A DNA stretch of 42,657 nt from a virus. Its lineage: Duplodnaviria > Heunggongvirae > Uroviricota > Caudoviricetes. Under the pieces are notes generated by a model. The model saw nothing but the letters and a program-made list of their open reading frames with translations, was not told where the DNA came from and did no database searches. Of the stretch, positions 4,783 through 42,657 are shown piece after piece. Position numbers and translations under genes: made by a program. The stretch lies in the IMG/VR virus record IMGVR_UViG_2925914267_000007, positions 1 through 42,657 of that record; one strand, 5' to 3'. Numbering within the stretch: position 1 is the first letter of the stretch; each line of letters opens with the position of its first letter.

Positions 4783-5238
4783 ACGATAAATAAAGCCTCC
4801 GGAGCTATGCAGAAATCGGCTAATGGAGCTGATATTTCTGATGTATCAGCCTTCCGAAATGCGCTCCAGTTAGGGACCGCCGCAACACGAGATGTTGGAG
4901 CAGATAATGCCTCGAAGTTACTGGATTTAGACAGCTTCAGGTCAATGATGTCAGGGAATGGCTACATCTACATTCCATGCATTGCGACGACAGGAAACCC
5001 GGTGAAACTTATGTTGCAGTGGGGAACGGTGGCAACACAAAAGGGAGCTGATGCTGGATATGCCTTACCATTTGCTTTTCCCTATGCAGGCTTATTTGCG
5101 ACCGGAAACCGTGGAACATCTGGCTACAATGCCGCGATGAATGTGCGTATTGCCAGCAGAACGCATATCAGTATTCAGAACTGGTCGCCATCCGGAGAGG
5201 GCACCGAAGATTGTTGTTTTATCGCGCTGGGGTATTAA
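4771..5238 (+). CDS. silent alternative tail-fibre C-terminal segment, expressed only after inversion
   Basis: Open frame without its own start; junction encodes VGLGE, mirroring the LGLGE junction in the expressed fibre. Confidence 0.5.
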   Translation, partial: GLGETINKASGAMQKSANGADISDVSAFRNALQLGTAATRDVGADNASKLLDLDSFRSMMSGNGYIYIPCIATTGNPVKLMLQWGTVATQKGADAGYALPFAFPYAGLFATGNRGTSGYNAAMNVRIASRTHISIQNWSPSGEGTEDCCFIALGY

Positions 5239-21958: not shown

Positions 21959-22061
21959 CGGACAAAATCAGAGCCGGAGCCATACCAAACTGCAGGTAAA
22001 CCCCGCACGTAAGCAGGCCAAAACCAGCCAGCCCGATAACATCAGCAATTAGTGATTTCAT
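21900..22061 (-). CDS. small hydrophobic protein (53 aa) between terminase and portal, not in the ORF track
   Basis: My own translation [46 protein letters not shown]...; ATG overlaps the TerL stop. Confidence 0.35.
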
Positions 22062-23791
22062 AGAATTAAGAGATCATCGTCCGGATCAAGAGATGAGAGG
22101 AAATCGTCAGGTTCTTTGAGCATTGCCCGACCGATCGTCATAATCAGTGCAACCGCACCATCGATTTTGTTTTCCGCCTGCTCCTTGACGGGCTTCACTA
22201 AATCATCGTTACCTGGCATGTTTTTGCCGACCACATTGCCGATACACCAGGTCATGATGGGATTGCCGTCATGATGAAAGCGCCCCGATTCAATCGCTGC
22301 TTCCAGCTCTTTCATCGGGTCGGACATATTGGCGAAGTTCTGGACGATAGTAACGGGATTCAGGTCTTCATCAGCAAGGTCATGTGACAGCCCGGTCGCC
22401 CCGAAAGGGTCGATGGGTGACTCACTGACCGGGCTGATTTTGTTCGCCGCTTTGGCCTCTTCGAGGATGTAGCGATAATCCACCTCTGCACCATCGGTAA
22501 CGATCAGGACGCCCATTTCCACCCATTTCTGAAAGCGTTCGGCTGTCCGGCGATCTTCATTTTTCTCGACGCTGTACACCGTGTCATACGGTACCCAGAA
22601 GCGCGGGGCCACACTGTAGTAATGCGTTTTACCGTCAATCTCGCGGGTATAAAGTCGCGCCATGCTGTTCATATCCAGCTTACGCGCCAGGTCAAAGGCC
22701 AGAATGCACGGTTGCCCCTCGAACTGCTCAAGGGTCAGTGATTTATCCTCGCAGCTCTGCCAGCTCACCAGATTGAAATAAGCCGAACGCGCCGACACCC
22801 AGATATTGAGGTGTTTTGTTTTAAAGACGTTTGCCAGGCGGGCGTTATTTTTCGCACGCTGCTGCTGACTTAACAAAAATTCGCGATAAACCGACACGCC
22901 AATATTTGGATTGGCTTTTTCCAGCACCTGCGGGTCGGTCCAGTCGTCACCTTCGTCAACGGTATAGATGATCCCGAACAGTTCATCGTTAGGCACCGAG
23001 CCGTTGAGCATCTCGATGACTTCCCGCCGCTTGTCGTAGCACGGCCCCTCAATGTTGTACCCGGCGGTGGTGATGGCCCACATCAGTGGCTGACGTCGCG
23101 CCCCCATCCCGGTAAGCATCGTGGTGTAAAGCGCATCGGTGGCGTGCTCGTGATATTCATCCACCACCGCACAGTGGGGTGATGAACCATCACCGGGGTT
23201 ACCGATCAGCGGTTCAAACCGCGCGCCATCCTCCGGACGGTTCATGTTTGAAGCGTTAACCTCAATCCCGAACGCTTCCGTCAGCATGGGTGTGCGTTTA
23301 CACATCAGTCGCGCCGGGCGAAAGACTTCCCACGCCTGTTTCTCTGTCGTGGCACCGGAATACACTTCCGCGCCAAACTCGTTATCACAGGCAAAACAAT
23401 ACAGGGCAACACCGGCAGAGATTGCTGATTTGCCGTTCTTACGGGGGATTTCGGTATACACCTCCCGGAAGCGGCGCAACCGGGTGCCTTTATTGACCCA
23501 GCCAAACGCACAGCAGATCACAAATAGCTGCCACGGCTCCAGCGTGATGGGCATCCGTTTGAATGCCCACTCACCCTTGGTGTGCGGCAACAGCTGAATA
23601 AATTTCGCGGCCCGTTCAGCCAGGTCCTTGTCGAAGCGGTAACGAAACGACTTACTTTTTTCCGCCATCAGGTCATCAAGATGGCGCTGGCAGGCCTGAA
23701 TCACAAACTGGCAGGCCACAATCTTTCCGCGCACGACATCACGGGCATACTGATTGGCAGCATTTACGTTGGGGTAAGATTTCCGGCTCAT
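22058..23791 (-). CDS. terminase large subunit
   Basis: 577 aa; ATPase plus nuclease-size protein; start overlaps the TerS stop. Confidence 0.85.
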
Positions 23792-24282
23792 GATTCGATG
23801 ATTTTCAGAAACGGGTTAGTGGCTTTCTTCTGCCCCGCCAGGCCAATCAGACGCTGGCGGCTGCTGGGGTCGAGTCCGAGCATTGCCCCCGTGCTGCTCA
23901 TCTCGGACTCCTGTTCTTTTTTGGCGGTCAGCTCCGGATTTTTGACCATACCGCCCATTGCACCGGTGATGGTGTTGCCCTGTCTGGCAATATTTTTCAC
24001 GGCACGTCGCCAGAACTCGTAGGCCACGCACCACCGCTCAAGCACCGCGAGGTCAGTCACGCACAGCAGGCCCTGACCGCAGAGTTCTTTAGTTGTCAGT
24101 TGCCACATGATCGTAGCGAGAGGGAGATCTTCTTCAGCGAACCACTCCGGTGGCTCAACACCTTTGATGGGCGTAAAAACAGGTTCATCTTTATTCAGGG
24201 CTCGCTTGCCGGGGTTTCCGGCCAGCGCCTTGCGCGCCGTTGGCTTGGGGCGACGCCCGGAACGCCCCGCCGTTCCAGCCAT
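23788..24282 (-). CDS. terminase small subunit (P27-like)
   Basis: Start ATG at 24282 with SD AGGAG (ORF-track start at 24291 is GTG); basic N-terminus; directly upstream of TerL. Confidence 0.7.
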
Positions 24283-24291
24283 ATGCGGCAC

Positions 24292-24407
24292 TCCTGGTTA
24301 AATTTCATTTTTCGCGGGTATAAAAAAACGATGGGGCGGGCAGTCCGGAAGACGTCAGGCTGCAGGGATTTGACCCGCCCCTCCCCTCAGACAGTTGAGA
24401 ATTATTA
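24292..24407. other. candidate cos / packaging-site region
   Basis: Intergenic segment between HNH and terS containing inverted repeat GGGGCGGG...CCCGCCCC. Confidence 0.3.
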
Positions 24408-24758
24408 TCACTTTAACCGTTCACGGGCCGTCTTCGCCTTATGACACGGCCAGCACAGACTCTGCAGATTACTGTCAGCATCAGTGCCGCCATGCGCTTT
24501 AGGGATGATGTGGTCAACAGTTTTCGCCTCACGCACCACACCAGCACGCAGACATAACTGACACAGACCTTTGTCACGCTTCAGAACACGCGCGCGGATA
24601 CTGTCCCACTTCGAACCGTAGCCGCGCTGATGACGGGATTGTCCAGGTTTGTATTGCTTCCAGCCTTCGCTTTTGTGGCTTTCGCAGTAGCCTGAAGGGT
24701 CAGTAGTGGTATGGCGGCAGCCGCGAACACGGCAGGCTTTCGGGGTTCGTGGCGGCAT
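24408..24758 (-). CDS. HNH endonuclease (packaging-associated)
   Basis: 116 aa; Cys pairs CRVRGC, CQLC and CWPCH plus DHIIP and KAHGG motifs; directly upstream of terS. Confidence 0.8.
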   Translation of the reverse strand: MPPRTPKACRVRGCRHTTTDPSGYCESHKSEGWKQYKPGQSRHQRGYGSKWDSIRARVLKRDKGLCQLCLRAGVVREAKTVDHIIPKAHGGTDADSNLQSLCWPCHKAKTARERLK

Positions 24759-24807
24759 TAATGCTTCCCTTTAAGTTATTACGATGGAACAGACCATAGA
24801 AATGGCA

Positions 24808-24832
24808 ATAAAAAACCGCCCGGAGGCGGTTC
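24808..24832 (-). terminator. intrinsic terminator downstream of the GrlR-like moron
   Basis: Minus-strand stem AACCGCC / GGCGGTT (loop tccg) followed by TTTTTATTG. Confidence 0.55.
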
Positions 24833-24850
24833 AATTATCATCTCGATAAA

Positions 24851-25171
24851 CTAAATCAGATCACCAATGTATTTTGCACTAATTGAAATTTGCATCTGAG
24901 GCATTCCGACCACAGATCCATTTAACAGGTAATCACGTCCTCGTTCCTGCAAAGAAAGACTCAATTCAAAGTTCTTTACCCCAGGGAAAACCGAGGTGAC
25001 ATTTAAATCATGCTGCGATACGCGCAGAATAAGTTGGCTACCGTCAATTTTTCCCTGATACGTAAAACCAAAATCTCCGCCGTTTACTGCATTGTTTTTG
25101 ACAACTACGGTACCATTACCAAAATCACGTTGATTGCTTCTGAAAACAACAAAATAGATACCATCTTTCAT
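24851..25171 (-). CDS. small beta-rich protein resembling GrlR-family regulators (identity unverified)
   Basis: 106 aa; MKDGIYFVVFRSN...GGD pattern recalled from GrlR; AT-rich; own terminator; sits between the lysis cassette and HNH. Confidence 0.4.
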   Translation of the reverse strand: MKDGIYFVVFRSNQRDFGNGTVVVKNNAVNGGDFGFTYQGKIDGSQLILRVSQHDLNVTSVFPGVKNFELSLSLQERGRDYLLNGSVVGMPQMQISISAKYIGDLI

Positions 25172-25263
25172 GTGTAAAGCCCTTTAAAAGAGTCACCAAA
25201 ATCAGGTGCTTTGTATCTATTGGGCCATCACATATCAAATCAAGGAACAAAACAAAGTTAACA

Positions 25264-25533
25264 TCATTTTTTTTGCATGATGTGACCACGCTCAACTTCA
25301 ATCCTTCTGATGTCAGCTTTATCGGTATTACACTGCGCCAATGCAGACAACAAGGCGACATTCAGATCTAAGCTCGAGCCCCACGTAAAATGATCAGGTA
25401 AATCAGGCTGAGGGGTTTCAGCCGTCAGGCTGGCTGGTAACGGAACTACCGGAACCTGGACGTAAACTGTTCGCGTACTTCCGCAACCGGTCAGCAGCGG
25501 CAGCAGGCACAGGACGTGAAGCACAATCATCAT
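25264..25533 (-). CDS. outer-membrane spanin (Rz1-like lipoprotein), overlapping Rz in another frame
   Basis: MMIVLHVLCLLPLLTGCGS lipobox; Pro-rich; starts inside the Rz gene and extends past it. Confidence 0.55.
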   Translation of the reverse strand: MMIVLHVLCLLPLLTGCGSTRTVYVQVPVVPLPASLTAETPQPDLPDHFTWGSSLDLNVALLSALAQCNTDKADIRRIEVERGHIMQKK

Positions 25534-25810
25534 CCGCAACAGCCACTTTGATATCTTCCTGGGTTCTCTGTGACTCCAGTGCGATCTGCTGTTTTGCATG
25601 CTGGTTAGCCTCCAGTACTGTATTGACGATTTGCAGTGATTGCAGGATGTTATTGGTAATGGCAGTTGCCAATTTGGCATTTTGTACAGCCTCATCAGCA
25701 CGTTTCTTTTCGTACTGATATTTGCTGTAGTAGTGGTTGGCTGACCAGATGAAAGAACCAATGACAGTAACGAAGAAAGCAGAGATAACCAGCTTATAGC
25801 TCAACTTCAT
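25418..25810 (-). CDS. inner-membrane spanin (Rz-like)
   Basis: 130 aa; N-terminal transmembrane helix then coiled coil; downstream of the endolysin. Confidence 0.65.
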   Translation of the reverse strand: MKLSYKLVISAFFVTVIGSFIWSANHYYSKYQYEKKRADEAVQNAKLATAITNNILQSLQIVNTVLEANQHAKQQIALESQRTQEDIKVAVADDDCASRPVPAAAADRLRKYANSLRPGSGSSVTSQPDG

Positions 25811-26270
25811 TTACCACCCCACCAGCCTCTTTAAACCGGGAAATCAGGTCGCCAATTTTATGTTCATACTGACCGTAACCTGCACCAGGTAAAGACGCCC
25901 AGATATTGCTGCAACGGTCGATTGCCTGACGAATATTGCCGCGATCAATCATCGGTAAAGCGCCACGCTCTTTAATCTGCTGTAATGCCACTGAGTCCTG
26001 GCTTCTGGGAGAGAAGTCTTTCAGCTCAAGCTGCTTGCGGTAAGCATCCCACCAACGTGAAAGAAGTTGATAACGGCCTGCAGCTGTTGATTTGAGTTTC
26101 GGGTTTAGCGTGACAAGTTTGCGAGGGTGATCGGAGTAATCAGTGAAGAGTTCGCCACCGACAATAACGTCATAACCGTGGTTACGTGTCGGTTGTCGCC
26201 CGTTATCCGTTCCTTCTGACCATGCCACCATATCGAGGAAAGCTTTACGCTGGGAATTTAGTACCTGCAT
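25794..26270 (-). CDS. endolysin, lambda R-like lytic transglycosylase
   Basis: 158 aa; near-identical over most of its length to lambda R as recalled (QRKAFLDMVAWSEGTDNGRQ...GRYQLLSRWWDAYRKQL). Confidence 0.85.
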   Translation of the reverse strand: MQVLNSQRKAFLDMVAWSEGTDNGRQPTRNHGYDVIVGGELFTDYSDHPRKLVTLNPKLKSTAAGRYQLLSRWWDAYRKQLELKDFSPRSQDSVALQQIKERGALPMIDRGNIRQAIDRCSNIWASLPGAGYGQYEHKIGDLISRFKEAGGVVNEVEL

Positions 26271-26273
26271 AAA

Positions 26274-26600
26274 TTACTCCTTAGAGCCACCAAACTTATT
26301 ACCGATTACTCTCATTGCAGCCCCACGAATAGCATCGACCCCGATCAGCCCAACGCCGCCACCAATGGCAACAGAAAGAGATTTAGGCCATCCGACATAC
26401 TCAAGAGCGGATGCAAAAGTCAGTGTCAGGGCGCCACAGAGAAAAATCTCGAGCGTTTTTCGCTTCCAGCCACCACCACCGCCAAAATAGGCAATGCGCA
26501 AGCCAGCCATAACGATCGACATAATTACTGCGCCCAGTGGTGTGTCTCCACGCCACCAGCTCTGGAACAACTCCAGCCAGGTATTTGGGTTATGAGGCAT
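26274..26600 (-). CDS. holin
   Basis: 108 aa; hydrophobic segments, Gly-rich, charged C-terminus; immediately upstream of the endolysin. Confidence 0.6.
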   Translation of the reverse strand: MPHNPNTWLELFQSWWRGDTPLGAVIMSIVMAGLRIAYFGGGGGWKRKTLEIFLCGALTLTFASALEYVGWPKSLSVAIGGGVGLIGVDAIRGAAMRVIGNKFGGSKE

Positions 26601-26749
26601 TTGTAGTTATCTCTCACCTCGCTGAAACAGCAGGTGCAAATTGAGGGAACATCATGTACCGCAAATCAGAAGCGGAAACGTCAAAGAAGCCGAACCAATG
26701 GATAACTGCGGAATAGGCCTAGACCAACGAATCCCCAGCCCCAGAAACG

Positions 26750-26778: not shown

Positions 26779-26892
26779 TGTGTGGCGAAGTAACCACTCT
26801 TAACACGATACAATTTTTTTTGCGTACGCGTTAGTTTTTTATTACTTTACTTTTTGATACTATCGGCGTGGTTACAAACAAGGAGAACAGCA

Positions 26893-27156
26893 ATGAGTAA
26901 CTACTTGGAAGTTAAGAGAAAAATTGGTCAATATGCATGTGTTACTCGGTGGGGTTTTCCCTGTGCCGAGCGTGAAATCACTTTGATACAAAATGACATT
27001 AACTCCGCGATTCAAAGTGGTAAAGTTATAAGTCGTAGCATGCTCCAAGGCATTATCAGCCGTCATGTTCCCAATACCCATTTCTTAATCACCGACAGTG
27101 TGGACAACTCTGATCTTAACACTGCATTAAGAATGCTGGCGCCAAAACAAAAATGA
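26893..27156 (+). CDS. AT-rich hypothetical protein, first gene of a two-gene cassette
   Basis: Start MSNYLEVKRK with RBS AAGGAG; 87 aa; opposite strand to the surrounding late genes; stop overlaps the next start (ATGA). Confidence 0.6.
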   Translation: MSNYLEVKRKIGQYACVTRWGFPCAEREITLIQNDINSAIQSGKVISRSMLQGIISRHVPNTHFLITDSVDNSDLNTALRMLAPKQK

Positions 27157-27893
27157 ATAATGATGTGTTTCAGATCAGCCCCGACGAAGTAACGTCGGAG
27201 CTGATTTCTGCAAAGGAAAGATTTTTACGTGGTATTCAGCCATACTTGTGTAATGGTATATCAAACCTTGCTGACCTACATGAAATTCAGCAGCATGCTT
27301 CAAAATATTTTAATACCGCTGTTAAATTAGTTCAAAAAGTAGATTTATGTAAACTGGATGACAATAAGACATTTGCCATTTCCTTAGTTGGAGACTGTCG
27401 AGCGGTTCTGGAAACTTATTTAGAATACTACGACATGATGGTGTCAAACATTAAATGCCTAGAAATTGATCCAAACAATATTGTACTGTATAGCAAAGAT
27501 GGTCTATCAAACCTCCAAAGAATCATTAAAAAGTATTCATCAAAAGATATTTACACACCTATTATTGCTGAATTTGAGTCTCGAAATTTGCCAATCGATG
27601 GATTTACTATAGGCACACCAATGAATTGGAAATTAATTGTCACTGCCATTATTGGATTTTTAAGTTTTTGTATTTTTTTATCAATTACGCTGCTAATCCC
27701 AGATTTAAATGAATTTCAAAAGAAAATGATTTTCTCTTTATATTTCATGAGCGCGGCCGTTGGAATCTCGCCATTCATTGCAAATAATATAAAGGTCAAT
27801 GGGAAGATGGCATTTCGTGGTTCGGAATTCAAAGTATCTGCTGTTGGTGGTTTAGCAGCATTGATTGTTTCTTTCATCATCCAAGTAATTTAG
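27153..27893 (+). CDS. AT-rich membrane protein with about three C-terminal transmembrane helices, second gene of the cassette
   Basis: 246 aa; soluble N-terminal ~155 aa; hydrophobic stretches WKLIVTAIIGFLSFCIFLSITLLI, MIFSLYFMSAAVGISPFIA, VSAVGGLAALIVSFIIQVI. Confidence 0.65.
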   Translation: MNNDVFQISPDEVTSELISAKERFLRGIQPYLCNGISNLADLHEIQQHASKYFNTAVKLVQKVDLCKLDDNKTFAISLVGDCRAVLETYLEYYDMMVSNIKCLEIDPNNIVLYSKDGLSNLQRIIKKYSSKDIYTPIIAEFESRNLPIDGFTIGTPMNWKLIVTAIIGFLSFCIFLSITLLIPDLNEFQKKMIFSLYFMSAAVGISPFIANNIKVNGKMAFRGSEFKVSAVGGLAALIVSFIIQVI

Positions 27894-27896
27894 CAA

Positions 27897-27914
27897 AGAG
27901 GCCCTAAGGCCTCT
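27897..27914. terminator. hairpin between the convergent cassette gene and the Q-like gene
   Basis: AGAGGCC-ctaa-GGCCTCT perfect stem; weak flanking T-runs on both strands. Confidence 0.4.
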
Positions 27915-27919
27915 TATAA

Positions 27920-28261
27920 TCATAGCATTGATAGCACACCACTAACAAAACCTAATGCTGTTTGCATATCTTTTCTAATTGTCCCATCAGAACACTTACG
28001 CTTCTTCGCAATGGTGCGTAATGAAATACCAATAACAAAGTGGGCAATAACTAACTCATATTCTTCTTGTTTATATTTACGTAACCGTGCGACACAACCG
28101 TCTATCATGATACCTTCATCATCATCACACTGGAGGCGAGACTTTTTACCGTGTGGTAAAAGCCCCTTGAAGCCTGCTGCTACCGGCTGCCAGTCCACAC
28201 CACTGTTGTCTGCTGCAGCCCATGCACCCCAGCGGTCCAATACTTCATACATATCACGCAT
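27920..28261 (-). CDS. late-gene antitermination protein Q-like (small Q family)
   Basis: Start MRDMYEV with SD GGAG; about 113 aa; position between early genes and lysis genes. Confidence 0.55.
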   Translation of the reverse strand: MRDMYEVLDRWGAWAAADNSGVDWQPVAAGFKGLLPHGKKSRLQCDDDEGIMIDGCVARLRKYKQEEYELVIAHFVIGISLRTIAKKRKCSDGTIRKDMQTALGFVSGVLSML

Positions 28262-28279
28262 CAACTTACTCCACAAAAA

Positions 28280-41644: not shown

Positions 41645-41674
41645 ACAAAAAACCCGCTTCGGCGGGTTAGTTTT
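41645..41674. terminator. bidirectional intrinsic terminator between convergent genes
   Basis: AAAAAA then stem AACCCGC-ttcg-GCGGGTT then TTTT; overlaps the stop codon of the YafO-like gene. Confidence 0.6.
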
Positions 41675-42101
41675 CATCTTTATAATTCTGGGCAATTCGC
41701 GCCAGATAGCTCATCACATCATGTTTTCTTGCTTTTTCATGTGCATCGGGATACATAATAGCAATGAGTGAATATTTATTCTCATAAAGCTCACCTTGGA
41801 CATACACAAGACAAGCATCATTATCAGGATCACCTTTCTTGCAGACCCTATCCGGTTGTGGAAGTTTCTCGGGAAACTTGTTTGGCGGTAGACAAAGATG
41901 GATATGCATCAACCCAGCCCGAAAAGCACCATAGGGCTGAGTATACGCAACGTCCCTACCGAAATAATGCGGAAGCTCACCGGTTGCTTTGTATCTCTTG
42001 AAATCATCAATGATAGAAGACTCTAGCTCCGGGAATTTGAGAAAAACTTCATCAAAAAATTCAGCTCTAGTTTCTGGATTAATAGAGACTTCTAGATGCA
42101 T
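41667..42101 (-). CDS. YafO-family toxin-like protein
   Basis: 144 aa; HIHL...PFP...LVYVQGE...LIAIMYPDAHEKAR parallels YafO as recalled; AT-rich. Confidence 0.55.
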   Translation of the reverse strand: MHLEVSINPETRAEFFDEVFLKFPELESSIIDDFKRYKATGELPHYFGRDVAYTQPYGAFRAGLMHIHLCLPPNKFPEKLPQPDRVCKKGDPDNDACLVYVQGELYENKYSLIAIMYPDAHEKARKHDVMSYLARIAQNYKDEN

Positions 42102-42117: not shown

Positions 42118-42657
42118 TTAGTGAAATTGCATCGATTTTAGCTTATTTGATGTGTGACTAGCTAGTGCTGCAATTCCAGCAAGATCCGCGCGCCCGCTAA
42201 ACGTAACAGTTTCTTTAAATATGCTCTTTATGTAATTGTTAAGGCGAGTGACAGATGAGCGAGCTTTAGCAATATGACGCCAGTAAACCTTCAGTTCTGA
42301 CCTGATAAATTCAGGCAGAGGCGATTCAATTGTACGCTTCACTTCTTCTTCAAAAGCACGCAGGAACATTTCGCATGCCTCTGTCGTATCTGTCCCGTTT
42401 TTGGAAACAAACTCGCGAGCATCTTGGCTATTAAGATCAATCAAACAGATATAGTAGTCATCTGCTGCAATTGTTAACTTTTGCAAGATCTCCTTACCCT
42501 CTTCCATTCTGCGTGAGAATTCCTCAACAGAAGGAGAGTACTCAAAAGGTTTAGCAATCACAGGGGCTGGCTGGATGATGAACTCCTGCGCCATAGCAGC
42601 AGGACAAGCCAGAGGCCCGCACAATGCAGCAAAAGTAATGGCGTTAAACGGATTCAT
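42118..42657 (-). CDS. AT-rich hypothetical protein with signal-peptide-like N-terminus, upstream partner of the YafO-like gene
   Basis: 179 aa; ATG is the last three bases of the window; ITFAALCGPLACPAAMA hydrophobic start; 16-bp spacer to the toxin-like gene. Confidence 0.5.
   Translation of the reverse strand: MNPFNAITFAALCGPLACPAAMAQEFIIQPAPVIAKPFEYSPSVEEFSRRMEEGKEILQKLTIAADDYYICLIDLNSQDAREFVSKNGTDTTEACEMFLRAFEEEVKRTIESPLPEFIRSELKVYWRHIAKARSSVTRLNNYIKSIFKETVTFSGRADLAGIAALASHTSNKLKSMQFH

Follow-up and report, generated by a model that had tools for sequence, protein, structure and literature searches.

The question raised by this locus is whether a temperate phage that carries a relative of GrlR, the repressor encoded within the LEE (locus of enterocyte effacement), brings a regulator of virulence into its host. 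The window, meaning the whole stretch of DNA analysed, is the 42,657-nucleotide (nt) IMG/VR record IMGVR_UViG_2925914267_000007 from a Caudoviricetes virus, and the element under study is a minus-strand gene of 106 amino acids (aa) that lies between the Rz/Rz1 spanin genes and a gene for an HNH endonuclease. An earlier note on this DNA, made before any database search, had described it as an AT-rich, terminator-flanked cargo gene for a GrlR-like small protein, possibly a regulator that might interact with host virulence circuits. By sequence and predicted fold, the product is a true but distant homologue of GrlR, and the gene sits in a self-contained accessory cassette, or moron, inserted between the Rz/Rz1 lysis genes and the HNH-TerS-TerL packaging genes of a temperate Escherichia coli phage. 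Family identity and cassette architecture, taken together, are held with high confidence. The protein belongs to a distinct phage-borne subfamily of 106-aa proteins and not to the LEE GrlR orthologues, and interference with virulence circuits is unsupported, as the features through which GrlR and GrlA interact are missing from it.

Homology to GrlR by sequence and predicted fold

The open reading frame (ORF) starts with ATG and translates as MKDGIYFVVF...AKYIGDLI (also written MKDGIYFVVFRSNQRDFGNG...SAKYIGDLI). In a phmmer search against all PDB sequences, GrlR was the sole match (2ovs/3e3c and 4kt5), with an E-value of 1.6e-10 over residues 1-105; a profile of the phage family matched GrlR with an E-value of 3e-18, and hhalign gave a probability of 98.2%. 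The Pfam model PF16518.11 scored the protein at 26.7 bits against a gathering score of 26.8, and a precomputed match to PF16518.12 is carried by many sister sequences. The MKDGIY start and the GGD motif (N30-G31-G32-D33), in which the earlier note had recognised a resemblance, are both common to GrlR in the alignment and are invariant or nearly so in the phage family.

From a family alignment of 47 sequences, AlphaFold2 models the protein as an antiparallel beta-barrel of eight strands that has a long plug-like loop, with a mean predicted local distance difference test score (pLDDT) of 93 and a predicted template modelling score (pTM) of 0.85. Beyond the barrel core, the aligned residues indicate that the window protein keeps most of the hydrophobic dimerisation face of GrlR. 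The dimer interface of GrlR includes Ile7, Ile23, Ile25, Val39, Ile107 and Gln41 (PMC1868957), which align, in that order, to I5, T21, V23, T37, I102 and Q39 in the window protein. The aligned residues are kept in most or all members of the phage family, with I5 and I102 invariant; two of the positions, T21 and T37, are Thr where GrlR has Ile or Val. The earlier note had proposed alignment, profile searches and structure prediction for a small beta-barrel as checks, and had named a lack of significant similarity to the GrlR family as grounds for abandoning the idea; the similarity found is significant and full-length, and the predicted fold is such a barrel.

Divergence from the LEE repressor

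Every testable defining feature of the LEE repressor GrlR fails in the window protein. Against the NCBIfam equivalog NF010652, which describes GrlR proper, it scored 40.5 bits, below the cutoff of 205. Mutagenesis has shown that a surface EDED motif of GrlR (E46-D49) is needed for GrlA binding and LEE1 repression, and the two proteins are strongly acidic and strongly basic, respectively, with isoelectric points (pI) of 4.83 for GrlR and 9.71 for GrlA (PMC1868957). At the EDED position the window protein has "-GSQ" in the alignment; this loop varies among members of the phage family and is not acidic in them, and the protein has a pI of 8.0 and a net charge of about +0.6, whereas the aligned part of GrlR has a pI of 4.7 and a charge of about -8. 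The C-terminal extension of GrlR, of about 15 residues, is also absent. The gene has Rz1 and HNH as its neighbours, with no grlA-like partner adjoining, and its setting is a prophage and not the LEE; a Pfam scan that took in 20 window ORFs of the regulatory and cargo kinds detected no CaiF_GrlA-family protein. The cassette also occurs in the enterotoxigenic E. coli (ETEC) strain H10407, which is not known to carry a LEE. GrlR itself (L0044; PDB 2ovs, 3e3c, 4kt5; PF16518), from the LEE of enterohaemorrhagic and enteropathogenic E. coli and of Citrobacter rodentium, is acidic, bears EDED, has the longer C-terminus and is encoded in a LEE operon with grlA, whereas the window protein is neutral to basic, lacks EDED and the longer C-terminus, and is encoded among the late genes of a phage, where its gene has a terminator of its own and no grlA operon.

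Of the description as a GrlR-family regulator, the homology therefore stands, in sequence and predicted fold, but a GrlR-type regulatory action is unsupported, since the EDED motif, the charge and the equivalog score all fail. On the same three counts the suggested contact with host virulence circuits finds no support, and it is weakened further by the lack of a CaiF/GrlA ORF among those scanned, by the presence of the cassette in strains that are not known to carry a LEE, and by the spread of relatives across Serratia, Klebsiella, Pectobacterium and other prophages. Caution is warranted here, as the family name invites a virulence reading, and some phage records use "T3SS (type III secretion system) negative regulator"; such a reading finds no support in the sequence, because both the GrlA-binding determinant and the partner gene are missing.

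Insertion of the gene as a moron

A near-identical prophage of E. coli TF5 lacks the cassette. In a blastn comparison of the window with the TF5 locus, homology was limited to positions 24000-24762 and 25298-26700, at 89-95% identity; TF5 has 59 bp in place of the 535 bp of the window, and its HNH gene directly adjoins lysC. From these limits, the cassette runs from the final ~11 codons of Rz1 through a leader of 92 nt, the ORF and a terminator to the HNH ribosome-binding region. Its GC content is 38.9%, compared with 56.4% and 48.3% in the two 1-kb flanks, and that of the ORF is 39.3%, compared with 50.4% for the whole window. Given that a near-identical prophage lacks this 535-bp, 39%-GC unit, the cassette is a classic moron. 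The parts of the cassette are as follows.

24763..25297, minus strand: whole cassette, 535 bp, 38.9% GC (blastn against E. coli TF5 prophage locus L002; GC content)
25172..25263, minus strand: leader between the Rz1 stop and the ATG, 92 nt, with a TTGATT-N18-TAGATA block, a small CACC-N7-GGTG hairpin and the Shine-Dalgarno (SD) sequence AAGGG
24851..25171, minus strand: GrlR-family beta-barrel protein gene, 106 aa (RefSeq WP_000651450.1; PHROG 2483)
24806..24832, minus strand: Rho-independent terminator with an 8-bp GC-rich stem, a 4-nt loop and a T-run (terminator scan, folding)

The ORF is a genuine gene under purifying selection. The ratio of nonsynonymous to synonymous substitution rates (dN/dS) is 0.16-0.17 against alleles that are 92-94% identical, and against remoter alleles the synonymous sites are saturated while protein identity is still 50-60%. 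A length of ~106 aa is kept in most of 42 distinct family proteins, and the product is without a signal peptide or transmembrane segment. On the plus strand, two ORFs of 38 and 55 aa that overlap the gene, as well as a promoter-like match at 25098-25125, were put down to chance, and an Rfam scan of 24700-25400 at E <= 1 returned only two sub-threshold chance matches, Yfr10 (over the terminator) and SNORD73.

The earlier placing of an AT-rich 106-aa gene between the spanins and HNH is confirmed by the computed ORF, GC content and neighbours, the span 24808-25171 that was given for it correctly covers the ORF and the terminator, and its status as cargo is borne out by presence and absence relative to TF5, by deviant GC content and by the terminator. 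The genes on either side, all on the same strand, are listed in order of transcription.

27920-28276, minus strand: Q antiterminator, farther upstream of the GrlR-like gene
26274-26600, minus strand: holin, lambda-type
25794-26270, minus strand: GH24 lysozyme
25264..25810, minus strand: Rz/Rz1 spanin pair, the final lysis-cassette genes, upstream of the GrlR-like gene (ORFs and RefSeq annotation); Rz is at 25418-25810 and the embedded Rz1 ends at 25264, and the RefSeq labels are "Rz1-like lysis system protein LysC" and DUF2570
24408-24758, minus strand: HNH endonuclease, which opens the packaging module downstream of the GrlR-like gene (ORF and RefSeq annotation)
23788-24291, minus strand: TerS, P27-type small terminase
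22058-23791, minus strand: TerL, large terminase

Morons of lambdoid phages include bor and lom of lambda and gp15 of HK97, after the concept of Hendrix and Juhala. The window cassette resembles them in being an extra gene between otherwise adjacent genes, with deviant composition and its own terminator, at the lysis/packaging boundary. It differs from them in that its product is predicted to be a soluble cytoplasmic barrel, whereas theirs are membrane proteins or lipoproteins, and in that a promoter of its own is not demonstrable in the window allele.

Conservation of the terminator and leader

The terminator hairpin occupies 24832-24813 on the minus strand, reading GAACCGCC-TCCG-GGCGGTTT followed by TTTATTG, and lies 18 nt past the stop codon. 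It folds with -17.2 kcal/mol (z = -3.3 against dinucleotide shuffles), and the intrinsic terminator attributed to the gene is thus confirmed by both the scan and the fold energy. Among distinct family loci, 88 of 97 have a GC-rich hairpin and T-run no more than 110 nt past the stop codon, most often at a distance of 14-18 nt, and imperfect versions occur in several of the others. The stems are diverse in sequence, including CCGCC/GGCGG, CCCGC/GCGGG, GGTCGC/GCGGCC, CCTCC/GGAGG and GCCACCTC/GAGGTGG, among others. The term "terminator-flanked" holds for the downstream side of the gene but not for the upstream side, where a small hairpin was not listed by the terminator scan.

Two classes of leader were distinguished in the family. 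In class B, found in relatives from Serratia, Klebsiella, Pectobacterium and others, a perfect TATAAT lies at a fixed 33-38 nt before the ATG in more than 12 distinct leaders; a -35-like hexamer stands ahead of it, and a short conserved palindrome, GCCAWWWGGC, comes after it. The window leader groups with the class A relatives, which conserve TTGA(A/T)T-N18-TA(A/G)ATA at the position equivalent to the class B TATAAT, and the TTGATT-N18-TAGATA of the window is a possible promoter, weak and non-canonical as judged from its sequence. The best sigma-70 promoter score in the window leader was no better than those of shuffles (p 0.88), and a consensus scan found no promoter upstream of the gene. With no canonical sigma-70 promoter detectable in the leader of the window allele, its independent expression in a lysogen is plausible only by analogy with its relatives.

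Short palindromes are also conserved between the putative -10 and the SD sequence, GCACC-N7-GGTGC in an E. coli/Enterobacter group and GCCAWWWGGC in a Serratia/Klebsiella group; examples lie at 25200-25215 in the window, at 4960-4975 in locus L003 and upstream of 6001 in loci L077 and L096. These could be an operator or a hairpin in the 5' untranslated region, the covariation being too slight to choose.

Distribution and genomic habit of the family

RefSeq lists the identical protein as WP_000651450.1 under the name "GrlR family regulatory protein". Of 5,426 complete E. coli genomes, 53, including that of ETEC H10407, carry the 721-bp region at 100% identity, and so does the isolated phage SKA5, in which the gene is annotated as hypothetical. 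The protein matches PHROG 2483, labelled function unknown in the catalogue, from end to end (E 6e-53), and the window gene is indistinguishable in length, lysis-side position and terminator from the genes of PHROG 2483/"GrlR family regulatory protein", which include the "negative regulator" genes of Klebsiella prophages. Homologues of ~106 aa and 50-93% identity are present in Salmonella, Citrobacter, Klebsiella, Enterobacter, Serratia, Pantoea, Pectobacterium, Yersinia, Cronobacter, Providencia, Xenorhabdus and Arsenophonus. Run against 1.8 billion representatives, a profile search returned 482 clusters (50% identity) at E <= 1e-3, most of them stand-alone proteins of 105-120 aa and a few of them joined to other domains.

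About 100 family loci were collected, and neighbouring genes were clustered across 97 of them. In most, the gene lies right after holin-endolysin-Rz and before the terminase, on the same strand, and the modules on either side vary, the lysis enzyme being GH19 or GH24 and the terminase P27-type, lambda GpA-type or others. In phages of the Providencia/Xenorhabdus type, the gene lies between Q or a methylase and the holin, and in Pectobacterium and a few others it is retained in prophage remnants or islands. No co-occurring partner gene was found across the 97 loci, in which lysis and terminase genes alone recur, and no GrlA-like neighbour was found beside the divergent chromosomal loci L100-L102 or the distant superfamily members P0140 and P0103. 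A literature search on GrlR-like proteins, including those of prophages and the RefSeq entry, turned up no study of the homologues from phages; GrlR homologues have been noted as existing without an assigned function (PMC9979310).

Two further ORFs, both absent from the window, accompany the gene in some phages. An ORF of ~212 aa (cluster c26, no Pfam match) follows it in some Serratia and Klebsiella phages, and a small ORF (cluster c19; 44-63 aa, MK(N/Y)LFI...) lies between the terminator and the holin in phages of the Providencia/Xenorhabdus type.

~6330-6520 in L046-L061, L066, L075-L078, L092 and L099: small MK(N/Y)LFI... ORF, just downstream of the GrlR-like gene

Among the distant members of the GrlR-like superfamily, P0174 and P0196 are fused to N-terminal domains of ~100 aa and others stand alone in chromosomes, one of them adjoining ftsZ (L104), so that the use of the barrel extends well beyond phages and the LEE.

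The homology and cargo status of the gene are already reflected in RefSeq naming and are in that sense ordinary; the finding is of modest interest and carries little weight as a discovery. Even so, the family is a clean case of a moron that is widespread and strongly conserved, with a confident fold prediction and no known function, and is therefore a reasonable candidate for a small study of Enterobacterales prophage cargo.

Possible function and alternatives

Protein sequestration is the only mechanistically defined activity of the GrlR fold family, in which a GrlR homodimer clamps the helix-turn-helix of GrlA and holds it off DNA (PMC1868957, PMC9979310). By extension, the window protein may homodimerise through its conserved barrel face, as GrlR does, and may bind and sequester another macromolecule, the likeliest target being a DNA-binding regulator other than GrlA. 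The guess of sequestration is based on the conserved dimer face, on the loss of the GrlA-binding patch and on a cassette architecture like that of morons expressed in lysogens; as drawn from the analogy with GrlR, a dimeric binding protein that sequesters another regulator is possible but doubtful.

Expression would be dual. Lying inside the Q-dependent late operon, the gene would be transcribed late in lytic growth, within an antiterminated transcript that overrides the cassette terminator, by analogy with lambdoid biology, in which Q-modified polymerase reads through terminators. In the lysogen, a weak promoter within the leader would drive the gene, with the terminator keeping cassette transcription out of the packaging genes; the protein would then act as an anti-regulator in lysogenic conversion. 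As a whole, this account of a moron with dual expression that encodes a sequestering anti-regulator is put forward tentatively, at somewhat under an even chance. Several points weigh against it: the GrlA-binding EDED loop is absent and its place varies from member to member, the protein itself is not acidic, a canonical sigma-70 promoter is not detectable in the leader of the window allele, no partner gene accompanies the family, whose neighbours vary among phages and whose distant relatives stand alone, and the constant association with the lysis cassette would equally fit a late or lysis-related role. A broader and rather unlikely extension would make the 106-aa phage barrels the ancestral main line in a large family of small binding proteins of the cytoplasm, spread by temperate phages as promoter-gene-terminator cassettes and acting on a conserved target other than GrlA (a host or phage regulator, or a small ligand), with the LEE GrlR a late, specialised recruit out of the phage pool that gained the EDED patch and its GrlA partner.

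A late role was considered in the form of a lysis or packaging accessory, for example a barrel that binds lipid or a small hydrophobic ligand and tunes membrane disruption or lysis timing, expressed from the Q-dependent late transcript only. In most loci the gene shares its strand with the lysis cassette and adjoins it, following Rz/Rz1 or immediately preceding the holin, and the window allele has no canonical promoter of its own, both of which fit such a role. Lipid binding by GrlR was reportedly described by Jobichen in 2009, as cited in PMC8553066, and the favourable evidence extends to the crystal of GrlR, where the barrel has a hydrophobic cavity with bound detergent (PMC1868957). The strong terminator kept family-wide and the canonical promoter of many relatives are, however, typical of independently expressed morons; close relatives such as TF5 dispense with the gene, it persists in prophage remnants and islands without lysis genes, and the protein has neither a signal peptide nor a transmembrane segment, and on this balance an accessory of this kind is unlikely. 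A phage-versus-phage or anti-defence factor, in which a small cytoplasmic barrel shields the lysogen against superinfection or soaks up a signalling molecule used in host defence, is given a similarly low probability. PADLOC returned no defence-system match for the protein.

That the protein is a functional GrlR, a prophage repressor that binds GrlA or the host paralogue CaiF and modulates LEE type III secretion, flagella or carnitine genes, is improbable. The homology is full-length, the fold is shared and the dimer-interface residues are largely retained, a PerC-family gene lies in the same prophage, and CaiF, a GrlA homologue, is encoded by E. coli hosts; moreover, GrlR has an unexplained repressor activity on LEE promoters that does not depend on GrlA and operates even in E. 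coli K-12 (PMC9979310). These points are outweighed by the missing EDED motif, which is needed for GrlA binding and repression (PMC1868957), by the pI of 8.0 compared with 4.7, by the equivalog score of 40.5 against 205 bits and by the lack of a CaiF_GrlA ORF among the 20 scanned in the window. The cassette, in addition, is found in E. coli that are not known to carry a LEE, and its relatives occur in the LEE-less genera Serratia, Klebsiella and Pectobacterium. At the other extreme, a decaying, non-functional ORF carried along by recombination is scarcely credible: nothing speaks for it beyond the lack of a known function, whereas the dN/dS of 0.16-0.17, the saturation of synonymous sites at 50-60% protein identity, the constant length of ~106 aa, the confident structure prediction and the 100% identity of the gene in 53 complete E. 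coli genomes and an isolated phage all speak against it.

Other cargo in the prophage

PerC/Pch proteins activate ler of the LEE. In a LEE-positive host, the PerC-family gene in the early region of the window would be the more direct candidate for cross-talk with virulence regulation, ahead of the GrlR-like gene.

32781-33275, minus strand: PerC-family ORF, early region (Pfam PF06069, E 1.8e-8)

A second AT-rich cargo (36% GC) lies at 26841-27946, between the Q antiterminator and the holin, and is transcribed against the direction of the late operon. In the same slot, the near-identical TF5 prophage carries another cargo, of 1.9 kb and three genes (TIGR04255 family and others), so that the slot is a variable hotspot, possibly one for defence genes. 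The longer of the two ORFs in the window cargo has a hydrophobic C-terminal part.

26854-27156 and 27153-27893, plus strand: second-cargo ORFs of 100 aa and 246 aa, respectively (no Pfam match, no credible PADLOC match)

Relative to the TF5 prophage, a KilA-N-domain gene is interrupted by a 1.3-kb insertion sequence of the IS3 family at 29718-31023, by which the prophage may be partly disabled.

30645-30971: IS3 orfA, HTH_Tnp_1
29758-30648: IS3 orfB, rve

A toxin gene lies near the end of the prophage.

41667-42101, minus strand: YafO-family type II toxin gene, adjoining a small ORF at 42118-42657
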